DNA of 64,000 bases from NCBI GenBank assembly GCA_028823885.1, contig JAPPFK010000055.1, positions 6,971 to 70,970 on the forward strand. The letters are read 5' to 3'. This DNA is from Rhodospirillales bacterium. GTDB taxonomy: Bacteria > Pseudomonadota > Alphaproteobacteria > Rhodospirillales > UBA2165. A model generated the notes under the pieces. It did not search any database and had not been told where the DNA came from. It saw nothing but the letters and a program-made list of their open reading frames with translations. Positions 2,417-60,465 of this stretch are shown piece by piece; within the stretch, counting starts at the first letter, position 1, and every line of letters starts with the position of its first letter. A program made the translations under genes and the position numbers.

Positions 2417-3412
2417 ATGAAGCTGGACAATCCGCCGCCGCCGGAATACGTCTTCAAGTATCACGAGCCGCCGAAAAGCGGCAATATTACCAATGGCTTG
2501 GGGGAGTCCCAGGTGCGCCGGGCGACCCGGGTTTTCCATTGGCCGTTCGGCAAGCCGCCGCATCACTGGCAGGCGCTCGATCTGCACTTCAATCTGATCG
2601 GCGGGATGGGCGGGCCCTATATGGGTTACGGCATGATCTGGCAGCGGTTGTGGAACCTCTGGCAGATCAGGCGCGCCAACGGACCCGTCGCGCCGAAACG
2701 CCGCGAGGTTGCCGACCCGAAGGCGATGGCCGGCGAAATCAAGGCCTACATTCAAAGGCATTTCACGGAGAGCATCGTCGGGATCACCCGGGTCGTTCCG
2801 ACGGATATCGTCGAGGGCGAGAGCGTCGATTTCGAGTACGTCATTTGCGTCGGCCAGCCCATGGAGCGGGACATCATGCTCCAGGCCCCCAAGCCGGCCG
2901 CCGGCTGGGAGGTGATGCGGGGCTATCGCCGGGTTTCCAGGCAGGCGGTCAAATTGGCGGCCCATATTCGCGGCCTCGGCTGGGAAGCGAAGGCCCACGC
3001 CGATCCCAAGACCGGTTCGCTGCTCCATATCCCCCCGGCGATCCGCGCCGGACTGGGCGAGCTCGGCAAGCACGGGTCGATCATCACCAGGGAATGGGGC
3101 TCCAACGTCCGGCTGGCCGCGGTCACCACGAATTTGCCGCTCGCCGTCGACGATCCGGTGGATATCGGCGTTGACGACCTCTGCGTCGCTTGCCGCCGGT
3201 GCACCCTCGACTGTCCGCCGGGCGCGATCATGGACAGCAAGCAGATGGTCCGGGGGGTGGAGAAGTGGTACGTCGATTTCGACAAGTGCGTGCCCTACTT
3301 CGCCGAGAATTCGGGCTGCGCCATCTGTATCGAGGTGTGTCCGTGGGCGGAACCGGGCCGGGGTCCGAAACTGTCCGAGACGCTGCTCGCCAAACGGCAG
3401 AAGGCCGCTTAA
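2417..3412 (+). CDS. QueG/RdhA-family 4Fe-4S dicluster protein
   Basis: Motifs CVACRRCTLDCPPGAI and C-x9-CAICIEVCPW. AGLGELGKHGSIITREWGS resembles the epoxyqueuosine reductase core. Start taken at MKLDN rather than the ORF-track 2387. Confidence 0.7.
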   Translation: MKLDNPPPPEYVFKYHEPPKSGNITNGLGESQVRRATRVFHWPFGKPPHHWQALDLHFNLIGGMGGPYMGYGMIWQRLWNLWQIRRANGPVAPKRREVADPKAMAGEIKAYIQRHFTESIVGITRVVPTDIVEGESVDFEYVICVGQPMERDIMLQAPKPAAGWEVMRGYRRVSRQAVKLAAHIRGLGWEAKAHADPKTGSLLHIPPAIRAGLGELGKHGSIITREWGSNVRLAAVTTNLPLAVDDPVDIGVDDLCVACRRCTLDCPPGAIMDSKQMVRGVEKWYVDFDKCVPYFAENSGCAICIEVCPWAEPGRGPKLSETLLAKRQKAA

Positions 3413-4854
3413 GGCGCTGAAACTCCGGGTCCGGGCATCGGCGGGCGGATGGCTTCATAGGCCGCGCCGATGGCCAGCAGTTTCCGGTCCTCGCCGGGCA
3501 GGCCGTCGAACCCGATCGCGGCCGGCAGTCCGTTGCCGCACAATCCCATGGCGACCGTAAGCCCGGGGAAGCCGGCCTGGCTCGCCGGCTGAACATTGTG
3601 CCCGGTCGCCGCGAAATGGGTGATTTCACCGCCGCGGAAGGGGTGCATCAGGACTTCCTGCAGCGGGCTTGCCGTGACCATGACCGACGGGAATACCAGG
3701 GCGTCCAGCCGGTTGCCGGCGAACGCGCCGCGATAGGTCTCCTGCAGCGCCGGACGCTGTTGGCCGAGGCAGCGCCCGTATTCCTCGTCCGTGACGGCCT
3801 CCGGCCCGACAAGCGAACCCAGCCGGTCTTTCAGGCCGCTGGCGGCGATCCGCCCGATAATTTCATCGCGGGTAACGGCCGCGCCGCTTTCCTCCAGATA
3901 CCTGGGCAGCGCCCGGACGATCTCGTACATGGAGACGACCTGGCCCATCTCGGCGATTTGCGTCTCGAGTTCGGGGATCGTGATCTCCACGATCTCGGCG
4001 CCGGCATCGGCAAGCCGGTTCAACTCGCGCTCGAAGACGGCGAGCACGCCGGCTTCGGCGCCGTCGCAAAAATAGCCGCGGTCGAGGCCGAGACGGAGCG
4101 ACGGCAGCGAAATTTCGGGGCGGTCCTCCTCGCCGGTAATCACCTCGTCGAGCAGTTGAAGATCGGCGACGGTTCGCGCCATCGGGCCGATGGTGTCCCG
4201 GGTCCATGAGATGGGGACGACGCCGGTCTGGCCGTAGCGGTGAAGCGTCGGCCGAAGCCCCGTGATTCCGCACCATGCGGCGGGATTGCGGACGCTGCCG
4301 CCGGTATCCGAGCCCAGTCCCGCAGGCGCGATGCGGGCGCCGACGGCGGCCGCCGTCCCGGTCGAACTGCCCGCCGGGGATCTATCCATATCGTAGGGAT
4401 TCCGGGCATTTCCGTGGCCGCCGAACACCAGCTCCGAGGTATCCCCGGGCGATTTGGTTATCCCCGGGCTGAACGCCAGCTCGTGCATGTTGGTCTTCGC
4501 CATGACGATGGCGCCGGCGGCGAGCAGCTTTTCGGCGACGGGCGCCGTCCGGTCGGGACGGTGATCGAACAGGGCCGGCGTGGCGGCGGTGGTCGGAAAC
4601 CCGGCGACGTCGATATTGTCCTTGATCACCAGCGGCAATCCATGGAGGCGGCCCCGAACGTCGCCTCGGCTTCTTTCGTCGTCCGAGTTCCGCGCCGCCG
4701 CCAGAAACCGCTCCGCGTCGAACCCAACGAGCGCGTTCAGGGACGAGAGTTCGGCGGCGCGCCTGCAGAGCGCTTCGGCGATCCCGAGCGCGGTCATCCC
4801 GCCGCTCTCCAAGCCTGAGAGAAGCTCCCCGGCGGTAAGGTCCGAAATTGCCAT
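3409..4854 (-). CDS. amidase (amidase-signature family)
   Basis: AS-family motifs GSDTGGSVRNPAAWCG and AGSSTGTAAAV. Start moved to MAISD (AGGAG 6 nt upstream). Its 3' end overlaps the previous gene by 4 nt, convergently. Confidence 0.85.
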   Translation of the reverse strand: MAISDLTAGELLSGLESGGMTALGIAEALCRRAAELSSLNALVGFDAERFLAAARNSDDERSRGDVRGRLHGLPLVIKDNIDVAGFPTTAATPALFDHRPDRTAPVAEKLLAAGAIVMAKTNMHELAFSPGITKSPGDTSELVFGGHGNARNPYDMDRSPAGSSTGTAAAVGARIAPAGLGSDTGGSVRNPAAWCGITGLRPTLHRYGQTGVVPISWTRDTIGPMARTVADLQLLDEVITGEEDRPEISLPSLRLGLDRGYFCDGAEAGVLAVFERELNRLADAGAEIVEITIPELETQIAEMGQVVSMYEIVRALPRYLEESGAAVTRDEIIGRIAASGLKDRLGSLVGPEAVTDEEYGRCLGQQRPALQETYRGAFAGNRLDALVFPSVMVTASPLQEVLMHPFRGGEITHFAATGHNVQPASQAGFPGLTVAMGLCGNGLPAAIGFDGLPGEDRKLLAIGAAYEAIRPPMPGPGVSAP

Positions 4855-4961
4855 GCGAGACTCCTGAATGCCGTTTCTCATCCTATGCGGCCGGGGGCCG
4901 GTGACCCGGGGGCGCCGGTTCGGAGTGATATTGTTTTTGTGCCAGCCGGCTAGGCGGAAAA

Positions 4962-55264: not shown

Positions 55265-56080
55265 ATGAACCAGCTCGCACCGGAGGAATCCCGCAACGGC
55301 GTCAAGTCCATCCGCCGTCTGCTGGTGATCCTCAAGACCCTCAATCAGCACAATGGATCCAAGGTGCTGGAGCTCAGCCGGCAGACCGGCATTTCGCGCC
55401 AATCCATCTACCGGATGCTGGCGACCCTGGAGGAGTTCGGCTACGTGCGCCGCCAGGAAACCGACGACCGGTACTATCTGACCCATCTGGTTCGGGAACT
55501 GGCGGACGGATATTTCGAGGAAGGGTGGGTGACGGAAATCGCCGCGCCGGTTCTGGAGGATCTCCTGGCCGAGGTGGTCTGGCCGACGGATCTCGCCACT
55601 TTTCTCAACGACGCCATGTATCTCAGGGAAACCACGCGCCGCAACAGCCCGTTCACCATCGACCGGGTGACCGTCGGCCAGCGCCTGCCGATGCTGATCT
55701 CCGCCATGGGCCGGGCCTATTTGAGCTACTGTCCGGCGTTGGAGCGGGAACACATCCTGGACGCGCTTCGGAAATCGGACGACGAGTACGACCGGCTTAT
55801 TCACCGCAAGGGCTATGTCGATGCGGTCATCGAAACCACCCGCGAGCGCGGCTACGCGGTGCGTTATTCCAAATATGTGGCGGAAATCAAGACCTCCACC
55901 ATCGCGGTGCCGGTGATGAGCGGTGAACGGGTGATGGCGGCTGTCGGCATCACCTTCATCGCGTCCGCGGCGACCGCCGAGGAGATCGCGGCGCGGCATT
56001 TGGACGCCTTGTTGCGTGCCGCCCGCGAAATCGAAGTCCGCAGCCAGGAGCTTCAGCAACAGGCGCAGCCCGCCAAATAG
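55265..56080 (+). CDS. IclR family transcriptional regulator
   Basis: N-terminal wHTH VLELSRQTGISRQSIYRMLATLEEFGYVRR, then a C-terminal IclR effector domain. Confidence 0.85.
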   Translation: MNQLAPEESRNGVKSIRRLLVILKTLNQHNGSKVLELSRQTGISRQSIYRMLATLEEFGYVRRQETDDRYYLTHLVRELADGYFEEGWVTEIAAPVLEDLLAEVVWPTDLATFLNDAMYLRETTRRNSPFTIDRVTVGQRLPMLISAMGRAYLSYCPALEREHILDALRKSDDEYDRLIHRKGYVDAVIETTRERGYAVRYSKYVAEIKTSTIAVPVMSGERVMAAVGITFIASAATAEEIAARHLDALLRAAREIEVRSQELQQQAQPAK

Positions 56081-56126: not shown

Positions 56127-56153
56127 ACCGATGCAAAGACGTCCGGGGGAGTT

Positions 56154-56999
56154 ATGGCTGAAAAACCGAGTGAGAAGCGCGCAAGCGGCATGCGCAGCGC
56201 CGAGAGGCTGCTGATCGTTTTGCGCGCGCTGAATCTGCGGAACGGCGCGACGGTGCTGGAACTCAACCGGGACACCGGCATTTCCCGCCAGGCCATCTAC
56301 CGCATCCTCGATACCCTGCGGAATTTCGGCTACGTGCGCCGGCAGGAAGCGACCGACCGCTTCCACCTGACCCACATGGTCCGGCGGCTGAGTTCGGGAT
56401 TCAAGGACGAGGAATGGATCGCCGACATCGCCGTCCCCATTCTCGGACGTTTGGTGCAGGAAGTGGTCTGGCCGACCGAACTGTCCACCTTCTCCGACAA
56501 CGCCATGTATATCCGGGAATCCACCCGCGGCCGCTCTCCCTTCACCATAGACCGGGTCGCGGTCGGCCAGCGGCTGCCCATGCTGCAATCGGCGTCGGGC
56601 CGGGCATATTTGAGCTACTGCCCGGACCCGGAGCGGGAAGCGATCATCGAGAACCTCAAGAGTTCCGACGACGATTTCGACCAGGTGGCCCACAAACCGG
56701 ATTACATCGAGCGCATCCTCGCCGCGACCCGGAGCCGCGGCTGGGCGGTCGGCGACGATTCCTTCCGGCTGCATCCCAAGACCGAAACCCTGGCGGTGCC
56801 GGTTCTGGTGAACGGCTATGCCCGGGCGAGCCTGCCGCTCACCTACATCGCCTCCGCCGCGACCGCCGAGCAGATTGCCGAGCGGCACATGAGCCAACTG
56901 CAGGCGGCGGCCAAGGAGATCGCCGACCGGATGGAGGAGATGCAGGCCCGTACCGACGACGATGACGACGACCTCATTCCCATCCGCGAGGCCAGCTAG
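56154..56999 (+). CDS. IclR family transcriptional regulator (tandem paralogue)
   Basis: VLELNRDTGISRQAIYRILDTLRNFGYVRR. Collinear with the upstream IclR (for example VVWPTELSTFSDNAMYIRESTR against VVWPTDLATFLNDAMYLRETTR). Acidic D-rich tail. Confidence 0.85.
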   Translation: MAEKPSEKRASGMRSAERLLIVLRALNLRNGATVLELNRDTGISRQAIYRILDTLRNFGYVRRQEATDRFHLTHMVRRLSSGFKDEEWIADIAVPILGRLVQEVVWPTELSTFSDNAMYIRESTRGRSPFTIDRVAVGQRLPMLQSASGRAYLSYCPDPEREAIIENLKSSDDDFDQVAHKPDYIERILAATRSRGWAVGDDSFRLHPKTETLAVPVLVNGYARASLPLTYIASAATAEQIAERHMSQLQAAAKEIADRMEEMQARTDDDDDDLIPIREAS

Positions 57000-57066: not shown

Positions 57067-57879
57067 ATGCTGGAGCTTTATCACCATGGATCATCGGCCT
57101 GCGCCACCAAGGCGCGTCTGACCCTGGACGAGAAGGGCGTGCCCTGGGAGAGCCGGTATATCGACATTCTGAAGAGCGAGCAGTTCACCGCCGAATACGC
57201 CAGGCTCAATCCCAAGTGCGTGGTGCCGACCCTGGTCCATGACGGCCATGTGGTCCGCGAAAGCACGGTGATCTGCGAATACGTCGACGAGGTGTTCGAC
57301 GGCCCGTCGCTCGTGCCGGATGATCCGCTGATGCGGGCCGAGATGCGCTTGTGGACCAAGATGGTCGATGAGGATCTTCATCCGGCGACCCAGGTGGTGA
57401 CGTTCGCCGCGTCCCACCGGGTGGGGGCGCTGAAGAAAACCAAGGAGGAGTTCGATTTCTACATCAACTCCATTCCCGATCCGGTCCGCCGGGCGCGCAA
57501 GCGGAGCGCCATCGTCGACGGCTGGAAATCCCCGGAAGCCACCAACGCGCTCCTGACCTTCAACAAGGCGATCAAATGGATGGAGGACAGCCTCGGCAAG
57601 TGGACGTGGCTCGCCGGCGACGGCTATTCCCTCGCCGATATCGCCATGACCATCTATCTCAACCGGCTGCACATCCTCTCCATGTCGCCCATGTGGGAGG
57701 GCAAATTTCCGAAGGTGTCGGCATTCTGGGAGACGGTATCGGCGCGGCCCAGCTTTCAGCCCGCCATCTACGACTGGCTGCCCGGCGAGCTCGAAAACGA
57801 GATGCGCGCCAACGGCGCCCAGTCCTGGCCCGAAGCCGAGGCGCTGCTGGCCGAGCTTGAGAGGGAGAAGGCCGCCTGA
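57067..57879 (+). CDS. glutathione S-transferase family protein
   Basis: LELYHHGSSACATKARLTLDEKG...VPTLVHDGHVVRESTVICEYVDEVF and WLAGDGYSLADI. GGAGG SD before the ATG at 57067. Confidence 0.8.
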   Translation: MLELYHHGSSACATKARLTLDEKGVPWESRYIDILKSEQFTAEYARLNPKCVVPTLVHDGHVVRESTVICEYVDEVFDGPSLVPDDPLMRAEMRLWTKMVDEDLHPATQVVTFAASHRVGALKKTKEEFDFYINSIPDPVRRARKRSAIVDGWKSPEATNALLTFNKAIKWMEDSLGKWTWLAGDGYSLADIAMTIYLNRLHILSMSPMWEGKFPKVSAFWETVSARPSFQPAIYDWLPGELENEMRANGAQSWPEAEALLAELEREKAA

Positions 57880-57932
57880 ACCGGCGGGACGCGTTCTAAA
57901 TTATCGTCGTTCCCCGCCCCACCGGACCGGCG

Positions 57933-58592
57933 TCAAGCCGGGTCCCTGGCCGGCGCGACGCCGATCATGCTGTCCCGGGTCACCAGTTCCCGGAGCCGTT
58001 CTTCCGGCCAATCCTCCGTGCCGGCGGGCCGTTTCGGCAGCACCAGATAGCGCATATCGGCGTTTGAATCGTGGACCCGCAGCGCCACGTCGCCGGGCAG
58101 CTCGGTGCCGAACTCCTTCAGGACCGCCCGGGGTTCGTTGACGGCGCGCGAGCGGTAGGACTTGGATTTGTACCAGTCCGGCGGCAGCCCGAGGATGGTC
58201 CTGGGATAGCAGGAACACAGCGTACAGACGATGACGTTGTGAACGCTGCCGGTGTTTTCGACCACCACCAGCTCCGCCCCCGCCATCGGGATATCCAGCT
58301 CCGCCGCGGCGGCCGTCCCGTTGCTGAGCAGGCGTTCCTTGTAGGCCGGGTCGGTCCACGCCCTGGCGATGATCTCGGCGCCTTTCTCGGTGCCCCGGGA
58401 ATCGAAAAATTCCACGTATTCCCGAACCTCGGTAGCGGTCACAAGGCCTTTCTCGATGCTCAGCTCCTTGAGCGCATCGGCGAGCAGTTCGAAATGTCCG
58501 GTCTCGTTCCGGTCGTGGACCGAGTCGTCGGCATAGGTAAGGACCGGACCGCCGCCGTGGTCATGTCCATGATCATGGGTGTCGCCGGTCAT
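57933..58592 (-). CDS. nitrile hydratase family alpha (metal-binding) subunit, cobalt-type motif
   Basis: VVCTLCSCYPRTILGLPPDWYKSKSYRSR and RYLVLPKRPAGT. His-rich N-terminus MTGDTHDHGHDHGGG. The start overlaps the upstream stop. Confidence 0.9.
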   Translation of the reverse strand: MTGDTHDHGHDHGGGPVLTYADDSVHDRNETGHFELLADALKELSIEKGLVTATEVREYVEFFDSRGTEKGAEIIARAWTDPAYKERLLSNGTAAAAELDIPMAGAELVVVENTGSVHNVIVCTLCSCYPRTILGLPPDWYKSKSYRSRAVNEPRAVLKEFGTELPGDVALRVHDSNADMRYLVLPKRPAGTEDWPEERLRELVTRDSMIGVAPARDPA

Positions 58593-58906
58593 CACGCGTC
58601 TCCTTCCACCGGGCTCAGCCAGTGCTCTTGAATTTCAAGATCGATGGTGTCTTCCGGGTGGCCGTCATAGCCGTTCCAGACATCGGCCTGCTTGAACCGC
58701 ACCCGGTAGAGGTGCCGCTCGGGCAGCCCGTCGAACCCGTAGGCCAGTTCCTCCGGATTCCTGAACGAGCCGCAATAGCGCTCGATGACGCCGGCTTTGC
58801 CCCGGATATATTGGGGAATGCGCCGGTGCCCGGGCGGCCAGGTCAGCGCCACGCGCACCGCATCGCCGGCGGCGTAGCCGGGCGGGCCCAGGGCCGCCCC
58901 GGTCAT
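58592..58906 (-). CDS. nitrile hydratase family beta subunit, C-terminal half as a separate ORF
   Basis: 104 aa. IPQYIRGKAGVIERYCGSFRNPEELAYG...YRVRF matches the NHase beta C-domain. GGGAGG SD 7 nt upstream. ATGA overlap with the preceding ORF. Confidence 0.8.
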   Translation of the reverse strand: MTGAALGPPGYAAGDAVRVALTWPPGHRRIPQYIRGKAGVIERYCGSFRNPEELAYGFDGLPERHLYRVRFKQADVWNGYDGHPEDTIDLEIQEHWLSPVEGDA

Positions 58907-59217
58907 TCCGCCGCCTCCCGGGCCGCGCGCAGTTCCGCCATCCTGGCGTCCACCTCGTCCCGGGTGACGAGCCGCTTCTCGACCATCAGGTCGGTGAGCG
59001 CGACGGTCCAGCGTTCGTAGTAGCCGCCGTCGTAGATGTCCGGGGGCAGGTCCTCGATGCAGCGGCGGAGCTCGTCGGTGGTGAGTTCGCCCTTCAGGCG
59101 CATGACGGTGAAGACGGCGCTGACCATCTTGTGCCAGGGGAGGAGTTCGTGCTCCTCGAGATCGATCGGGCCGCCCGGCAGGCCGCCCAGATCGTGCTGT
59201 CCCCGTTCCAATGGCAT
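58903..59217 (-). CDS. nitrile hydratase family beta subunit, N-terminal half as a separate ORF
   Basis: 104 aa. MPLERGQHDLGGLPGGPIDLEEHELLPWHK...YYERW matches the NHase beta N-domain. GGAGGAA SD. Confidence 0.8.
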   Translation of the reverse strand: MPLERGQHDLGGLPGGPIDLEEHELLPWHKMVSAVFTVMRLKGELTTDELRRCIEDLPPDIYDGGYYERWTVALTDLMVEKRLVTRDEVDARMAELRAAREAAE

Positions 59218-59329
59218 TGGGTTCCTCCAAGGCGCTTCCGATTGTCGGACAAAGTGTCGCGCCGCGTTTGAGGGCCGTCAACCCGGCTGTCATACTTCAC
59301 CCCATTAGGATTCATCCAGGGAGGACACC

Positions 59330-59620
59330 ATGGCCAGGGGCTATTGGATTTCGCGCTACACCCACCCGGGCGGGGACGCTCAGGCGAGCTACCAGGAAAT
59401 CGCCCAATCGGTGGTGCCGGCCTTTGGCGGCAGACCCGTCATCCGCAACGGCCGGCACGAGACGCCGGAGGGCGACGAAACCGGCGCGACGGTGGTGATC
59501 GAGTTCGAGAGCTATGAAAAGGCCGTCGAGTGCTACCGCTCCGACGAATACCAGAAGGCGGTGCCGTTCATGGACGGCGCGCGGCGGAATCTGATCATCA
59601 TCGAGGGTGTCGACGAATAA
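59330..59620 (+). CDS. DUF1330 domain protein
   Basis: 96 aa. MARGYWISRYT...VVIEFESYEKAVECYRSDEYQKA is the typical DUF1330 pattern. Confidence 0.7.
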   Translation: MARGYWISRYTHPGGDAQASYQEIAQSVVPAFGGRPVIRNGRHETPEGDETGATVVIEFESYEKAVECYRSDEYQKAVPFMDGARRNLIIIEGVDE

Positions 59621-59622
59621 GG

Positions 59623-60465
59623 ATGGCCGGCCTCGACGCTCAATGGGCCCGGCCGGACCTGATCGCGGCCATCGACGCGGCGACCCGCGCGGCCGGTCTC
59701 GACCCGGACGACCTGGACGCCGACGGCCTGGCGGCGGTCGAACATCTGCATTCGGGCGGTATCGCCACGACCCGGGATCAGGCGGCCCAGGTCAACGGCG
59801 TCTCGGAGATCACGCCCGAAACCCATGTCCTGGACGCCGGCTGCGGGGTCGGCGGCCCGGCCCGCTGGCTGGCGCGGAAATTCGGCTGCCGGGTGACGGG
59901 CATCGACATCACGCCCGATTTCGTCGAGGCCGCCCGGGAGCTGACCCGCCGCCGGGGAATGGAAAATCTGGTGGAAATCTCCGTCGGCGACGCCACCGAC
60001 CTGCAATTCGAGGATCGGACGTTCGATCTCCTGTGGTGCCAGAACGTCACCATGAATATCGAGGACAAGGGCACGCTGCTCGGCGGTTTCCACCGGGTGC
60101 TCAAGCCGGGCGGCCGGTTCACCTTCGCCGAGTTCAGCTACGGCCCCGGGGCCGGCGAGGCCCGCGACATTCATTTCCCGGTCAACTGGGCCAGGACGCC
60201 GGACGTCAACTTCCTGAACTCGGAGAAAGGCCTGCGCCGCAACCTCGCGGGAAACGGCTTCGACGTCGAGGTGATGGAGAACTATTCCGGGACCATTCTC
60301 CGCCGGGTGCGCGAGGCGACGGAGAAAGCCGGCGGCAAGCCGCCGAGCCCCTTGGGCATCCAGGTGGTTCTGGGCGACGATGTGCCCGAGCGCAGCGCCA
60401 ACACCCAGCGAAATCTCGCCGAGGAGCGGCTGATCTACTGGATGGCCACGGCCAGGAAGGTTTAG
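59623..60465 (+). CDS. class I SAM-dependent methyltransferase
   Basis: Motif I VLDAGCGVGGPARWLA and post-I VTGIDI. Start at MAGLDAQW. Confidence 0.8.
   Translation: MAGLDAQWARPDLIAAIDAATRAAGLDPDDLDADGLAAVEHLHSGGIATTRDQAAQVNGVSEITPETHVLDAGCGVGGPARWLARKFGCRVTGIDITPDFVEAARELTRRRGMENLVEISVGDATDLQFEDRTFDLLWCQNVTMNIEDKGTLLGGFHRVLKPGGRFTFAEFSYGPGAGEARDIHFPVNWARTPDVNFLNSEKGLRRNLAGNGFDVEVMENYSGTILRRVREATEKAGGKPPSPLGIQVVLGDDVPERSANTQRNLAEERLIYWMATARKV

Follow-up and report, generated by a model that had tools for sequence, protein, structure and literature searches.

A probable cobalt-type nitrile hydratase with a split beta subunit and no linked activator gene in an uncultured Rhodospirillales genome

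The window analyzed here, a 64,000-nucleotide (nt) stretch of a Rhodospirillales metagenome-assembled genome (MAG; GenBank GCA_028823885.1, contig JAPPFK010000055.1, positions 6,971 to 70,970), carries three short minus-strand genes (57933–59217 in window coordinates) that resemble a nitrile hydratase (NHase) whose beta subunit is divided between two polypeptides. This arrangement raises the question of what the locus encodes: a working NHase, a thiocyanate hydrolase (SCNase), a tailoring enzyme of secondary metabolism, or a broken gene. We consider it likely, with a probability of roughly 0.8, that the translationally coupled genes encode a cobalt-type NHase with a heterotrimeric protomer of beta-N, beta-C, and alpha, which would mature without a dedicated activator. 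As judged from gene and protein sequences, the three-subunit Co-NHase is real and conserved, and it is probably functional.

A preliminary description of the locus reported three minus-strand open reading frames (ORFs) of 104, 104, and 219 amino acids (aa), linked by ATGA and TGATG overlaps and each with its own Shine–Dalgarno sequence, and assigned the first two to the N- and C-terminal halves of an NHase beta subunit; all of this is borne out. The beta-N gene (58903–59217, minus strand) encodes a 104-aa protein matching PF21006 (NHase_beta_N, E = 1.3e-20), the beta-C gene (58592–58906, minus strand) a 104-aa protein matching PF02211 (NHase_beta_C, E = 2.2e-19), and the alpha gene (57933–58592, minus strand) a 219-aa protein matching PF02979 (NHase_alpha, E = 4.7e-80). 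The beta-N stop and beta-C start codons both fall within ATGA, as read from the sequence, and the beta-C stop and alpha start codons within TGATG; a GTG one codon upstream of the alpha ATG is an alternative start. Shine–Dalgarno motifs on the same strand are spaced 6–7 nt from the ATG of all three genes: GGAGG for beta-N (59224–59228), GGGAGG for beta-C (58914–58919, within the 3' end of beta-N), and AAGGAG for alpha (58600–58605, within the 3' end of beta-C). A 233-aa ORF is also open in the beta-C frame; however, GC content at third codon positions (GC3) is 0.46 in its 5' extension, as compared with 0.82 in beta-C proper, and because of this drop the extension is read as noncoding and the beta-C start is placed at 58906. 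The longer frame is an artefact of high-GC sequence. A scan of 57700–59700 for promoters and terminators returned nothing useful.

The two small proteins align with successive parts of an ordinary beta subunit. In the 226-position NHase beta model TIGR03888, beta-N covers positions 2–102 and beta-C positions 136–226, and alignment with the P. thermophila beta sequence, verified against PDB, shows that the interdomain linker of about 35 residues is absent. Arg51, Tyr66, and Trp70 of beta-N are the counterparts of P. thermophila beta Arg52, Tyr68, and Trp72, whose equivalents are conserved in 76/76, 76/76, and 74/76 beta-N homologs, respectively. In beta-C, the SH3-like half, His27 and Arg29 correspond to beta His155 and Arg157; the equivalents of His155, Arg157, and Tyr161 are invariant among 78 beta-C homologs (78/78). 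The window proteins thus retain equivalents of beta Arg52, Arg157, and Tyr68, the residues that contact the oxidized cysteines. Beta-N also carries an additional arginine (its own Arg52), which forms an "RR" doublet specific to the clade described below: the residue following P. thermophila beta Arg52 is Arg in all 76 split beta-N proteins and in SCNase, and is variable in classical enzymes.

The third ORF had been described as carrying a cobalt-type metal claw, and it does: VCTLCSC occupies alpha residues 122–128 (58209–58229, minus strand), with the threonine of the cobalt type, whereas the Fe-type reference 2QDY_A reads VCSLCSC. The best PDB matches of alpha are Co-type NHase alpha subunits, at about 200 bits. 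Arg131 (58200–58202, minus strand), the residue that follows CTLCSCYP, lines up with SCNase gamma-Arg136 and serves as a signature of the clade: Arg occupies this position in 87/87 split-clade alphas and 3/3 SCNase-type alphas, whereas 10/10 classical Co-type alphas have Trp or Phe and the Fe-type reference has Trp.

Scanning GTDB at one genome per species identified 458 stretches encoding alpha relatives, of which the best 80 were fetched and inspected. Wherever the fetched DNA reached far enough upstream (about 74 of the 80 loci), the beta-N and beta-C matches always fell in different frames or had stop codons between them; no fused beta was found among them, in agreement with the genuine split that had been proposed. 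The same holds for alphas as little as 55% identical, in Alpha-, Beta-, and Gammaproteobacteria as well as in a Gemmataceae MAG, and the loci include complete chromosomes as well as RefSeq plasmids of cultured strains; RefSeq annotates such loci as nthA with two "SH3-like domain-containing protein" genes. At the beta-N/beta-C junction, the two genes overlap by 4 nt in 51 of 74 loci and are 2–5 nt apart in another 20. Database clusters tell the same story of length: a word-indexed search returned 59 beta-N homolog clusters, all but one of 93–144 aa, and an exhaustive beta-N search returned 1044 representative clusters at E ≤ 1e-3 (189 at E ≤ 1e-10), with most of the best 150 falling at 95–150 aa.

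In the mechanism that we propose, alpha would bind low-spin Co(III) through the CTLCSC claw, two cysteines of which would be oxidized to sulfinate and sulfenate. Beta-N would supply the Arg, Tyr, and Trp equivalent to beta Arg52, Tyr68, and Trp72, and beta-C the His and Arg equivalent to beta His155 and Arg157; second-shell beta residues would hydrogen-bond to the oxidized cysteines, and the assembled enzyme would hydrate a nitrile to the amide.

The preliminary description had found no P14K/NhlE-type activator beside the operon. We likewise detect none in the 64-kb window besides beta-N itself. A hidden Markov model (HMM) built from eight accessory proteins, run with filters off against all stop-to-stop ORFs of at least 40 aa, matched only beta-N, both in the window and in the 80 loci; the window beta-N scored 30.1 bits (E = 2.7e-7), split-clade beta-N proteins 26–34 bits, fused betas 31–50 bits, and true accessory proteins 116–159 bits. 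Among plasmid loci, an annotated "nitrile hydratase accessory protein" follows 7/7 of the fused-beta loci fetched; split loci have no annotated accessory gene, with Aminobacter MSH1 the one exception. Cobalt transporters of the HoxN, CbtAB, and HupE types were not found in the 64-kb window either. Such transporters are adjacent to the operon in a subclade with beta-C/alpha/beta-N gene order (HoxN or CbtAB) and in a Streptomyces plasmid locus (L096).

A published system provides a precedent for maturation of this kind. The NHase of S. canus CGMCC 13662 is encoded in the order anhD-anhE-anhA, AnhD and AnhE being N- and C-terminal beta fragments (Guo et al., 2019, 2020; PMC7329996). The S. canus genome has no activator gene, cobalt inserts directly under reducing conditions, and the AnhD2A complex performs both self-subunit-swapping and metal chaperoning (PMC7329996). 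The window operon has in common with AnhD-AnhE-AnhA the beta-N/beta-C/alpha order, the cobalt type, the missing activator gene, and a beta-N homologous to swapping chaperones. By analogy with what was shown for AnhD, beta-N, an activator-family homolog of similar size, most likely doubles as an alpha-binding chaperone for subunit swapping and cobalt insertion, which would allow maturation without a dedicated activator. This layout, the lack of an activator, and a chaperoning beta-N have thus already been published, and the locus is no new kind of system. It adds a compact, self-contained three-gene example from an uncultured Rhodospirillales lineage; activator-independent Co-NHases are attractive as biocatalysts because classical enzymes need a co-expressed chaperone.

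The same resemblance to activators admits another reading, in which beta-N is an activator paralog serving as a maturation chaperone only, and the mature enzyme consists of alpha and beta-C. Beta-N (104 aa) falls in the size range of accessory proteins (104–148 aa), is detected by the accessory HMM, and has a weak match to TIGR03889. However, beta models fit it far better (PF21006, E = 1e-20; TIGR03888, positions 2–102), the equivalents of beta Arg52, Tyr68, and Trp72 are kept in 74–76 of 76 homologs, and ScNHase, ToyJKL, and SCNase were all purified as three-subunit enzymes (PMC7329996). We regard this reading as improbable, and prefer a beta-N that is both chaperone and structural subunit.

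The alpha N-terminus offers a further candidate for metal handling. A His/Asp-rich tail, read directly as MTGDTHDHGHDHGGG (58548–58592, minus strand), precedes the conserved core; such a tail, with at least 3 His (median 5), occurs in 81 of 84 split-clade alphas and is therefore a family trait and no local oddity. The preliminary description had suggested that it could be a built-in metal-acquisition device in place of an activator. The tail is not specific to activator-less enzymes, however: the same kind of tail is present in SCNase gamma, whose N-terminus (MSADHDHDHDHDHDH) is also HDH-rich, and, among eight classical alphas accompanied by an accessory gene, in those of Pantoea, Sulfitobacter, and Ensifer. 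An essential, activator-replacing role is not supported; a role as a helper in capture of Co2+ is plausible from the composition of the tail. In the enzyme of the eukaryote Monosiga brevicollis, deletion of the His17 stretch by Yang, Bennett, and Holz (2018) reportedly left the protein metallated and active. His-rich ends are also found on the accessory proteins of classical operons (L088 4306–4683, L089 4304–4738, and L090 3618–4043), whose C-termini, e.g., HERDHDDHDDHGHQH, resemble the split-clade alpha N-terminal tails.

The split beta and the arginine following the claw both bring to mind SCNase, and the placement of alpha bears directly on this possibility. Reference alphas were taken from annotated NHase loci on plasmids of cultured strains, and the SCNase gamma, SCNase beta, and Fe-type alpha sequences were verified against PDB. 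In the resulting tree, all split-beta enzymes and the SCNase group form one clade with 96% bootstrap support (92% after addition of the Streptomyces three-subunit locus L096), which excludes 10/10 sampled classical fused-beta Co-type enzymes; the window alpha lies inside the 92% clade together with L096, a stand-in for the AnhA/ToyJ type. The SCNase group forms a long separate branch (100% bootstrap), and monophyly of the split enzymes relative to SCNase receives 34–44% support. Because of the clade support and the Arg and "RR" signatures, the alternative raised earlier, that alpha nests among ordinary two-subunit NHases, fails. These data yield a simple sequence rule: CTLCSCYP-R with a beta "RR" marks split-beta activator-less enzymes and SCNase, and CTLCSCYP-W/F marks classical enzymes. 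Classical Co-type NHases (P. thermophila 1IRE, P. putida 3QXE, and the Rhodococcus L- and H-NHases) share the claw, second-shell residues, and fold families of the window proteins; unlike them, they have a fused beta of 220–250 aa with a linker, an adjacent P14K/NhlE/NhhG accessory gene, and no "RR".

It is nonetheless very unlikely that the operon encodes an SCNase orthologous to ScnB/ScnA/ScnC, converting SCN- to COS and NH3. The two have much in common: the SCNase of Thiobacillus thioparus (PDB 2DD4) has the same three-gene logic, with a split beta in the same order, and shares gamma-Arg136, the beta arginine doublet, and an HDH-rich alpha N-terminus, in addition to membership in the 92–96% clade. 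Arakawa et al. (2007) reportedly found that gamma-Arg136 and a cluster of beta arginines define thiocyanate specificity. The window proteins have the equivalent of gamma-Arg136 and two of three beta arginines, with Leu in place of the third. However, the gamma equivalog model TIGR03887 scores the window alpha at 217.3 bits, well short of its 291.45 cutoff, whereas the NHase alpha model passes, and alpha is 45% identical to SCNase gamma as compared with 51–58% to NHases (51–53% to classical Co-type enzymes). The window alpha also lacks the insertion of gamma (around residues 96–110), a column gapped in 94% of the split clade, and the window beta-N lacks the SCNase beta N-terminal domain, an extension of about 45 aa, aligning from SCNase beta residue 45. 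Pocket residues differ as well: His at P. thermophila beta-155 and Leu at beta-51 are kept as in NHase, where SCNase has Tyr and Arg, and of the 10 alpha columns at which SCNase and classical NHases part, the split clade sides with SCNase in only four. The long SCNase branch and a neighborhood with no sulfur-oxidation context point the same way. On the equivalog score, the missing insertion and extension, and the mixed pocket residues, SCNase orthology is rejected.

Two plasmid loci annotated with scnC illustrate a different state of the SCNase type. In Roseomonas marmotae (L083 2535–4184) and Azospirillum ramasamyi (L087 2042–3684), the beta is a single 283-aa protein equivalent to ScnB and ScnA fused; the SCNase-type branch therefore contains re-fused betas. 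Both loci adjoin CbtAB or HupE together with a TauE/SafE exporter.

A second specialized function, that of a tailoring enzyme like ToyJKL with a 7-cyano-7-deazapurine or some other nitrile of secondary metabolism as its substrate, appears still less probable. ToyJKL is cited as another three-subunit enzyme (PMC7329996), with the layout seen in the window, and the Streptomyces plasmid locus L096 belongs to the same superclade, having the same gene order, a His-rich tail, CTLCSCYP-R, and the beta "RR". The ToyJKL genes lie in a deazapurine nucleoside gene cluster, and the enzyme acts on toyocamycin. The Streptomyces rimosus enzyme (McCarty and Bandarian, 2008; Nelp et al., 2014) is said to have a split beta, to be of the cobalt type, and to have an alpha that self-matures. 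However, no deazapurine or other biosynthetic gene occurs among the Pfam-scanned neighbors (41.5–64 kb of the window), members of the clade occur in hundreds of marine and soil proteobacterial genomes, beside neighbors that change, and the window alpha is no closer to Streptomyces-type alpha (about 58% identity) than to other split enzymes. From the S. canus system the window operon also differs in its host, a Rhodospirillales MAG, and L096 has an adjacent HoxN cobalt transporter and an aquaporin, neither of which accompanies the window operon.

A related architecture is known from M. flocculans, where a plasmid NHase has two beta genes separated by alpha and no activator (2020 work, via PMC11573777). 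Loci of this type in Microvirga terrae (L082), Burkholderia (L084), Polymorphobacter (L091), and Rhizobium (L092) resemble the window in the YPR motif, the His-rich tail, and the superclade; they differ in their beta-C/alpha/beta-N order and adjacent HoxN or CbtAB, and form their own subclade (90–93% bootstrap). Gene order thus varies among members (L067, L082, and L084), and the beta halves are therefore independent genes. In L067 (5666–7010, a Dongiaceae MAG), the order is beta-C, alpha, beta-N, yet its alpha lies inside the beta-N/beta-C/alpha clade; gene order has therefore changed more than once.

A sequencing frameshift or pseudogene of an ordinary beta, which the -1 frame of beta-C relative to beta-N and their 4-nt overlap might at first suggest, can be dismissed, since about 74 independent assemblies keep the split, the interdomain linker is missing, both halves come with a Shine–Dalgarno sequence and start codon of their own, the GC3 profile sets the start of beta-C, and gene order differs in the three loci just named. 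Because the split is conserved, the linker absent, and the catalytic residues invariant, the comparison indicates that the split is ancestral and selected. The -1 offset of beta-C from beta-N recurs in 69 of 74 loci (4-nt overlap or 2-nt gap) and probably reflects inherited translational coupling, not programmed frameshifting. In Aminobacter sp. MSH1 (pUSP2; L088 3007–4683), a classical alpha-first operon with an amidase, an accessory protein, and CbtAB has a beta that is annotated as a pair of ORFs (103 and 118 aa), which represents either an independent split or an assembly frameshift.

Several points weigh against a three-subunit NHase that matures without a dedicated activator. For this locus, catalysis, chaperoning by beta-N, and any contribution of the tail are inferred from sequence. 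The likeness to AnhDEA, ToyJKL, and the M. flocculans enzyme is one of architecture, with same-genus plasmid loci (L096 and L082) as stand-ins for those proteins. Alpha passes the NHase alpha equivalog model TIGR01323 marginally, by about 3 bits (253.0 bits against a cutoff of 249.85), and the beta halves score 61.4 and 60.6 bits in TIGR03888, whose cutoff for one protein is 152.2. The tree is distance-based (neighbor-joining, 188 trimmed columns, 100 bootstraps, rooted on the Fe-type enzyme) and has few references, with 10 classical Co-type enzymes and one Fe-type outgroup. An activator or cobalt transporter could be encoded beyond the 64-kb window. Finally, a search of the window for amidases found none adjacent to the operon; the only amidase-signature-like ORF (3409–4881, minus strand) is 27% identical to NHase-linked amidases, lies about 54 kb away, and is not obviously linked to the NHase operon.

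The neighborhood says less about the substrate than had been proposed. The operon is flanked by genes for a glutathione S-transferase (GST), a DUF1330 protein, an S-adenosylmethionine (SAM) methyltransferase, a VanA-like Rieske oxygenase, an Amidohydro_2 protein, two IclR regulators, and a NIPSNAP protein, with TRAP and EamA transporters farther away; the preliminary description took its neighbors to suggest an aromatic nitrile or thiocyanate-related pathway. When 12 window neighbors were queried by tblastn against 95 loci, the GST, DUF1330, methyltransferase, IclR pair, and NIPSNAP genes were syntenic only in five same-genus MAGs (L001–L005; alpha 94–96% identical), and the Rieske and amidohydrolase genes varied even among these. 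Because the neighbors are conserved only within the genus, such a pathway is unsupported. The tandem IclR paralogs (55265–56080 and 56151–56999, plus strand) lie just downstream of the GST gene, and both are 97–99% conserved in the five same-genus MAGs, tighter than the surrounding enzymes.

In a large sister subclade, de novo clustering of ORFs recovered other recurrent neighbors: an adjacent EamA transporter (37 loci), a UbiD-family decarboxylase (30 loci), and Meth_synt_2 directly upstream (17 loci), together with cupin, luciferase-like monooxygenase, and MarR genes. None of these is adjacent to the operon in the window. Within this L024–L066 subclade, e.g., in L041 (4217–9107), the Meth_synt_2 gene, which is MetE catalytic-domain-like, stops 5 nt short of beta-N, with which it shares a strand (17 loci), with EamA and luciferase-like monooxygenase genes downstream and UbiD decarboxylase and bicupin genes upstream. 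This arrangement is a conserved gene cluster around this type of NHase.

The split beta is likewise a poor guide to substrate. It had been read as a sign that the substrate may not be an ordinary nitrile; however, the characterized enzymes of S. canus (AnhDEA) and M. flocculans act on ordinary organic nitriles such as acetamiprid, thiacloprid, sulfoxaflor, and flonicamid (PMC7329996, PMC11573777), and a split beta alone is therefore no pointer to an unusual substrate. What interest remains lies in the substrate of the marine and alphaproteobacterial branch and in the signatures it has in common with SCNase. This branch combines the beta-N/beta-C/alpha order, a His/Asp-rich tail, and two extra active-site arginines common to SCNase with an absence of linked amidase, activator, and cobalt transporter genes; an EamA-type transporter is adjacent in about half of the loci. 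A separate branch of proteobacterial NHases from the Global Ocean Sampling (GOS) survey was noted in 2008 (PMC2603476). It is conceivable, though doubtful, that the operon represents a large marine and environmental proteobacterial branch (chiefly Alphaproteobacteria) of the split-beta/SCNase superclade, with no biochemically studied member, whose substrate would be a small polar or anionic nitrile or a pseudohalide and not a hydrophobic nitrile, whose amide would be an end product or exported, and whose operon type would be the ancestor of eukaryotic beta-His-alpha fusions.

The last of these connections can be followed in the fused homologs. The eukaryotic NHase of Monosiga brevicollis is a single beta-His17-alpha polypeptide (PMC2603476, PMC3323583), resembling the window operon in its beta-then-alpha order and in a His-rich stretch exactly at the position of the alpha tail. 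The best matches of the window beta-N include eukaryote-like beta-N/beta-C/His-rich/alpha fusions (P0261, P0306, P0314, and P0316) as well as fusions of beta-N, a His-rich linker, and alpha (P0238 and P0321). The alpha part of the three checked (P0238, P0321, and P0261) is most similar to split-clade loci, although P0261, the one eukaryote-like fusion among them, has CTLCSCYP-L as compared with CTLCSCYP-R in the window. These similarities suggest that the eukaryotic fusion enzymes derive from the split operon type. According to Martinez et al. (2017), the Monosiga enzyme is reportedly active without an activator. The linker of P0306 is about 200 aa long and rich in His, Gly, Lys, and Glu.

Other domain arrangements occur among the homologs as well. 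P0224 is a 394-aa single-chain beta-N/beta-C/alpha fusion with a degenerate claw, VVGTLDSSGYPR, that contains no cysteine ligands, and may be a catalytically dead NHase homolog. Three proteins of about 200 aa (P0180, P0186, and P0209) consist of two tandem beta-N domains; P0180 is the top-scoring match of the window beta-N in the representative library.

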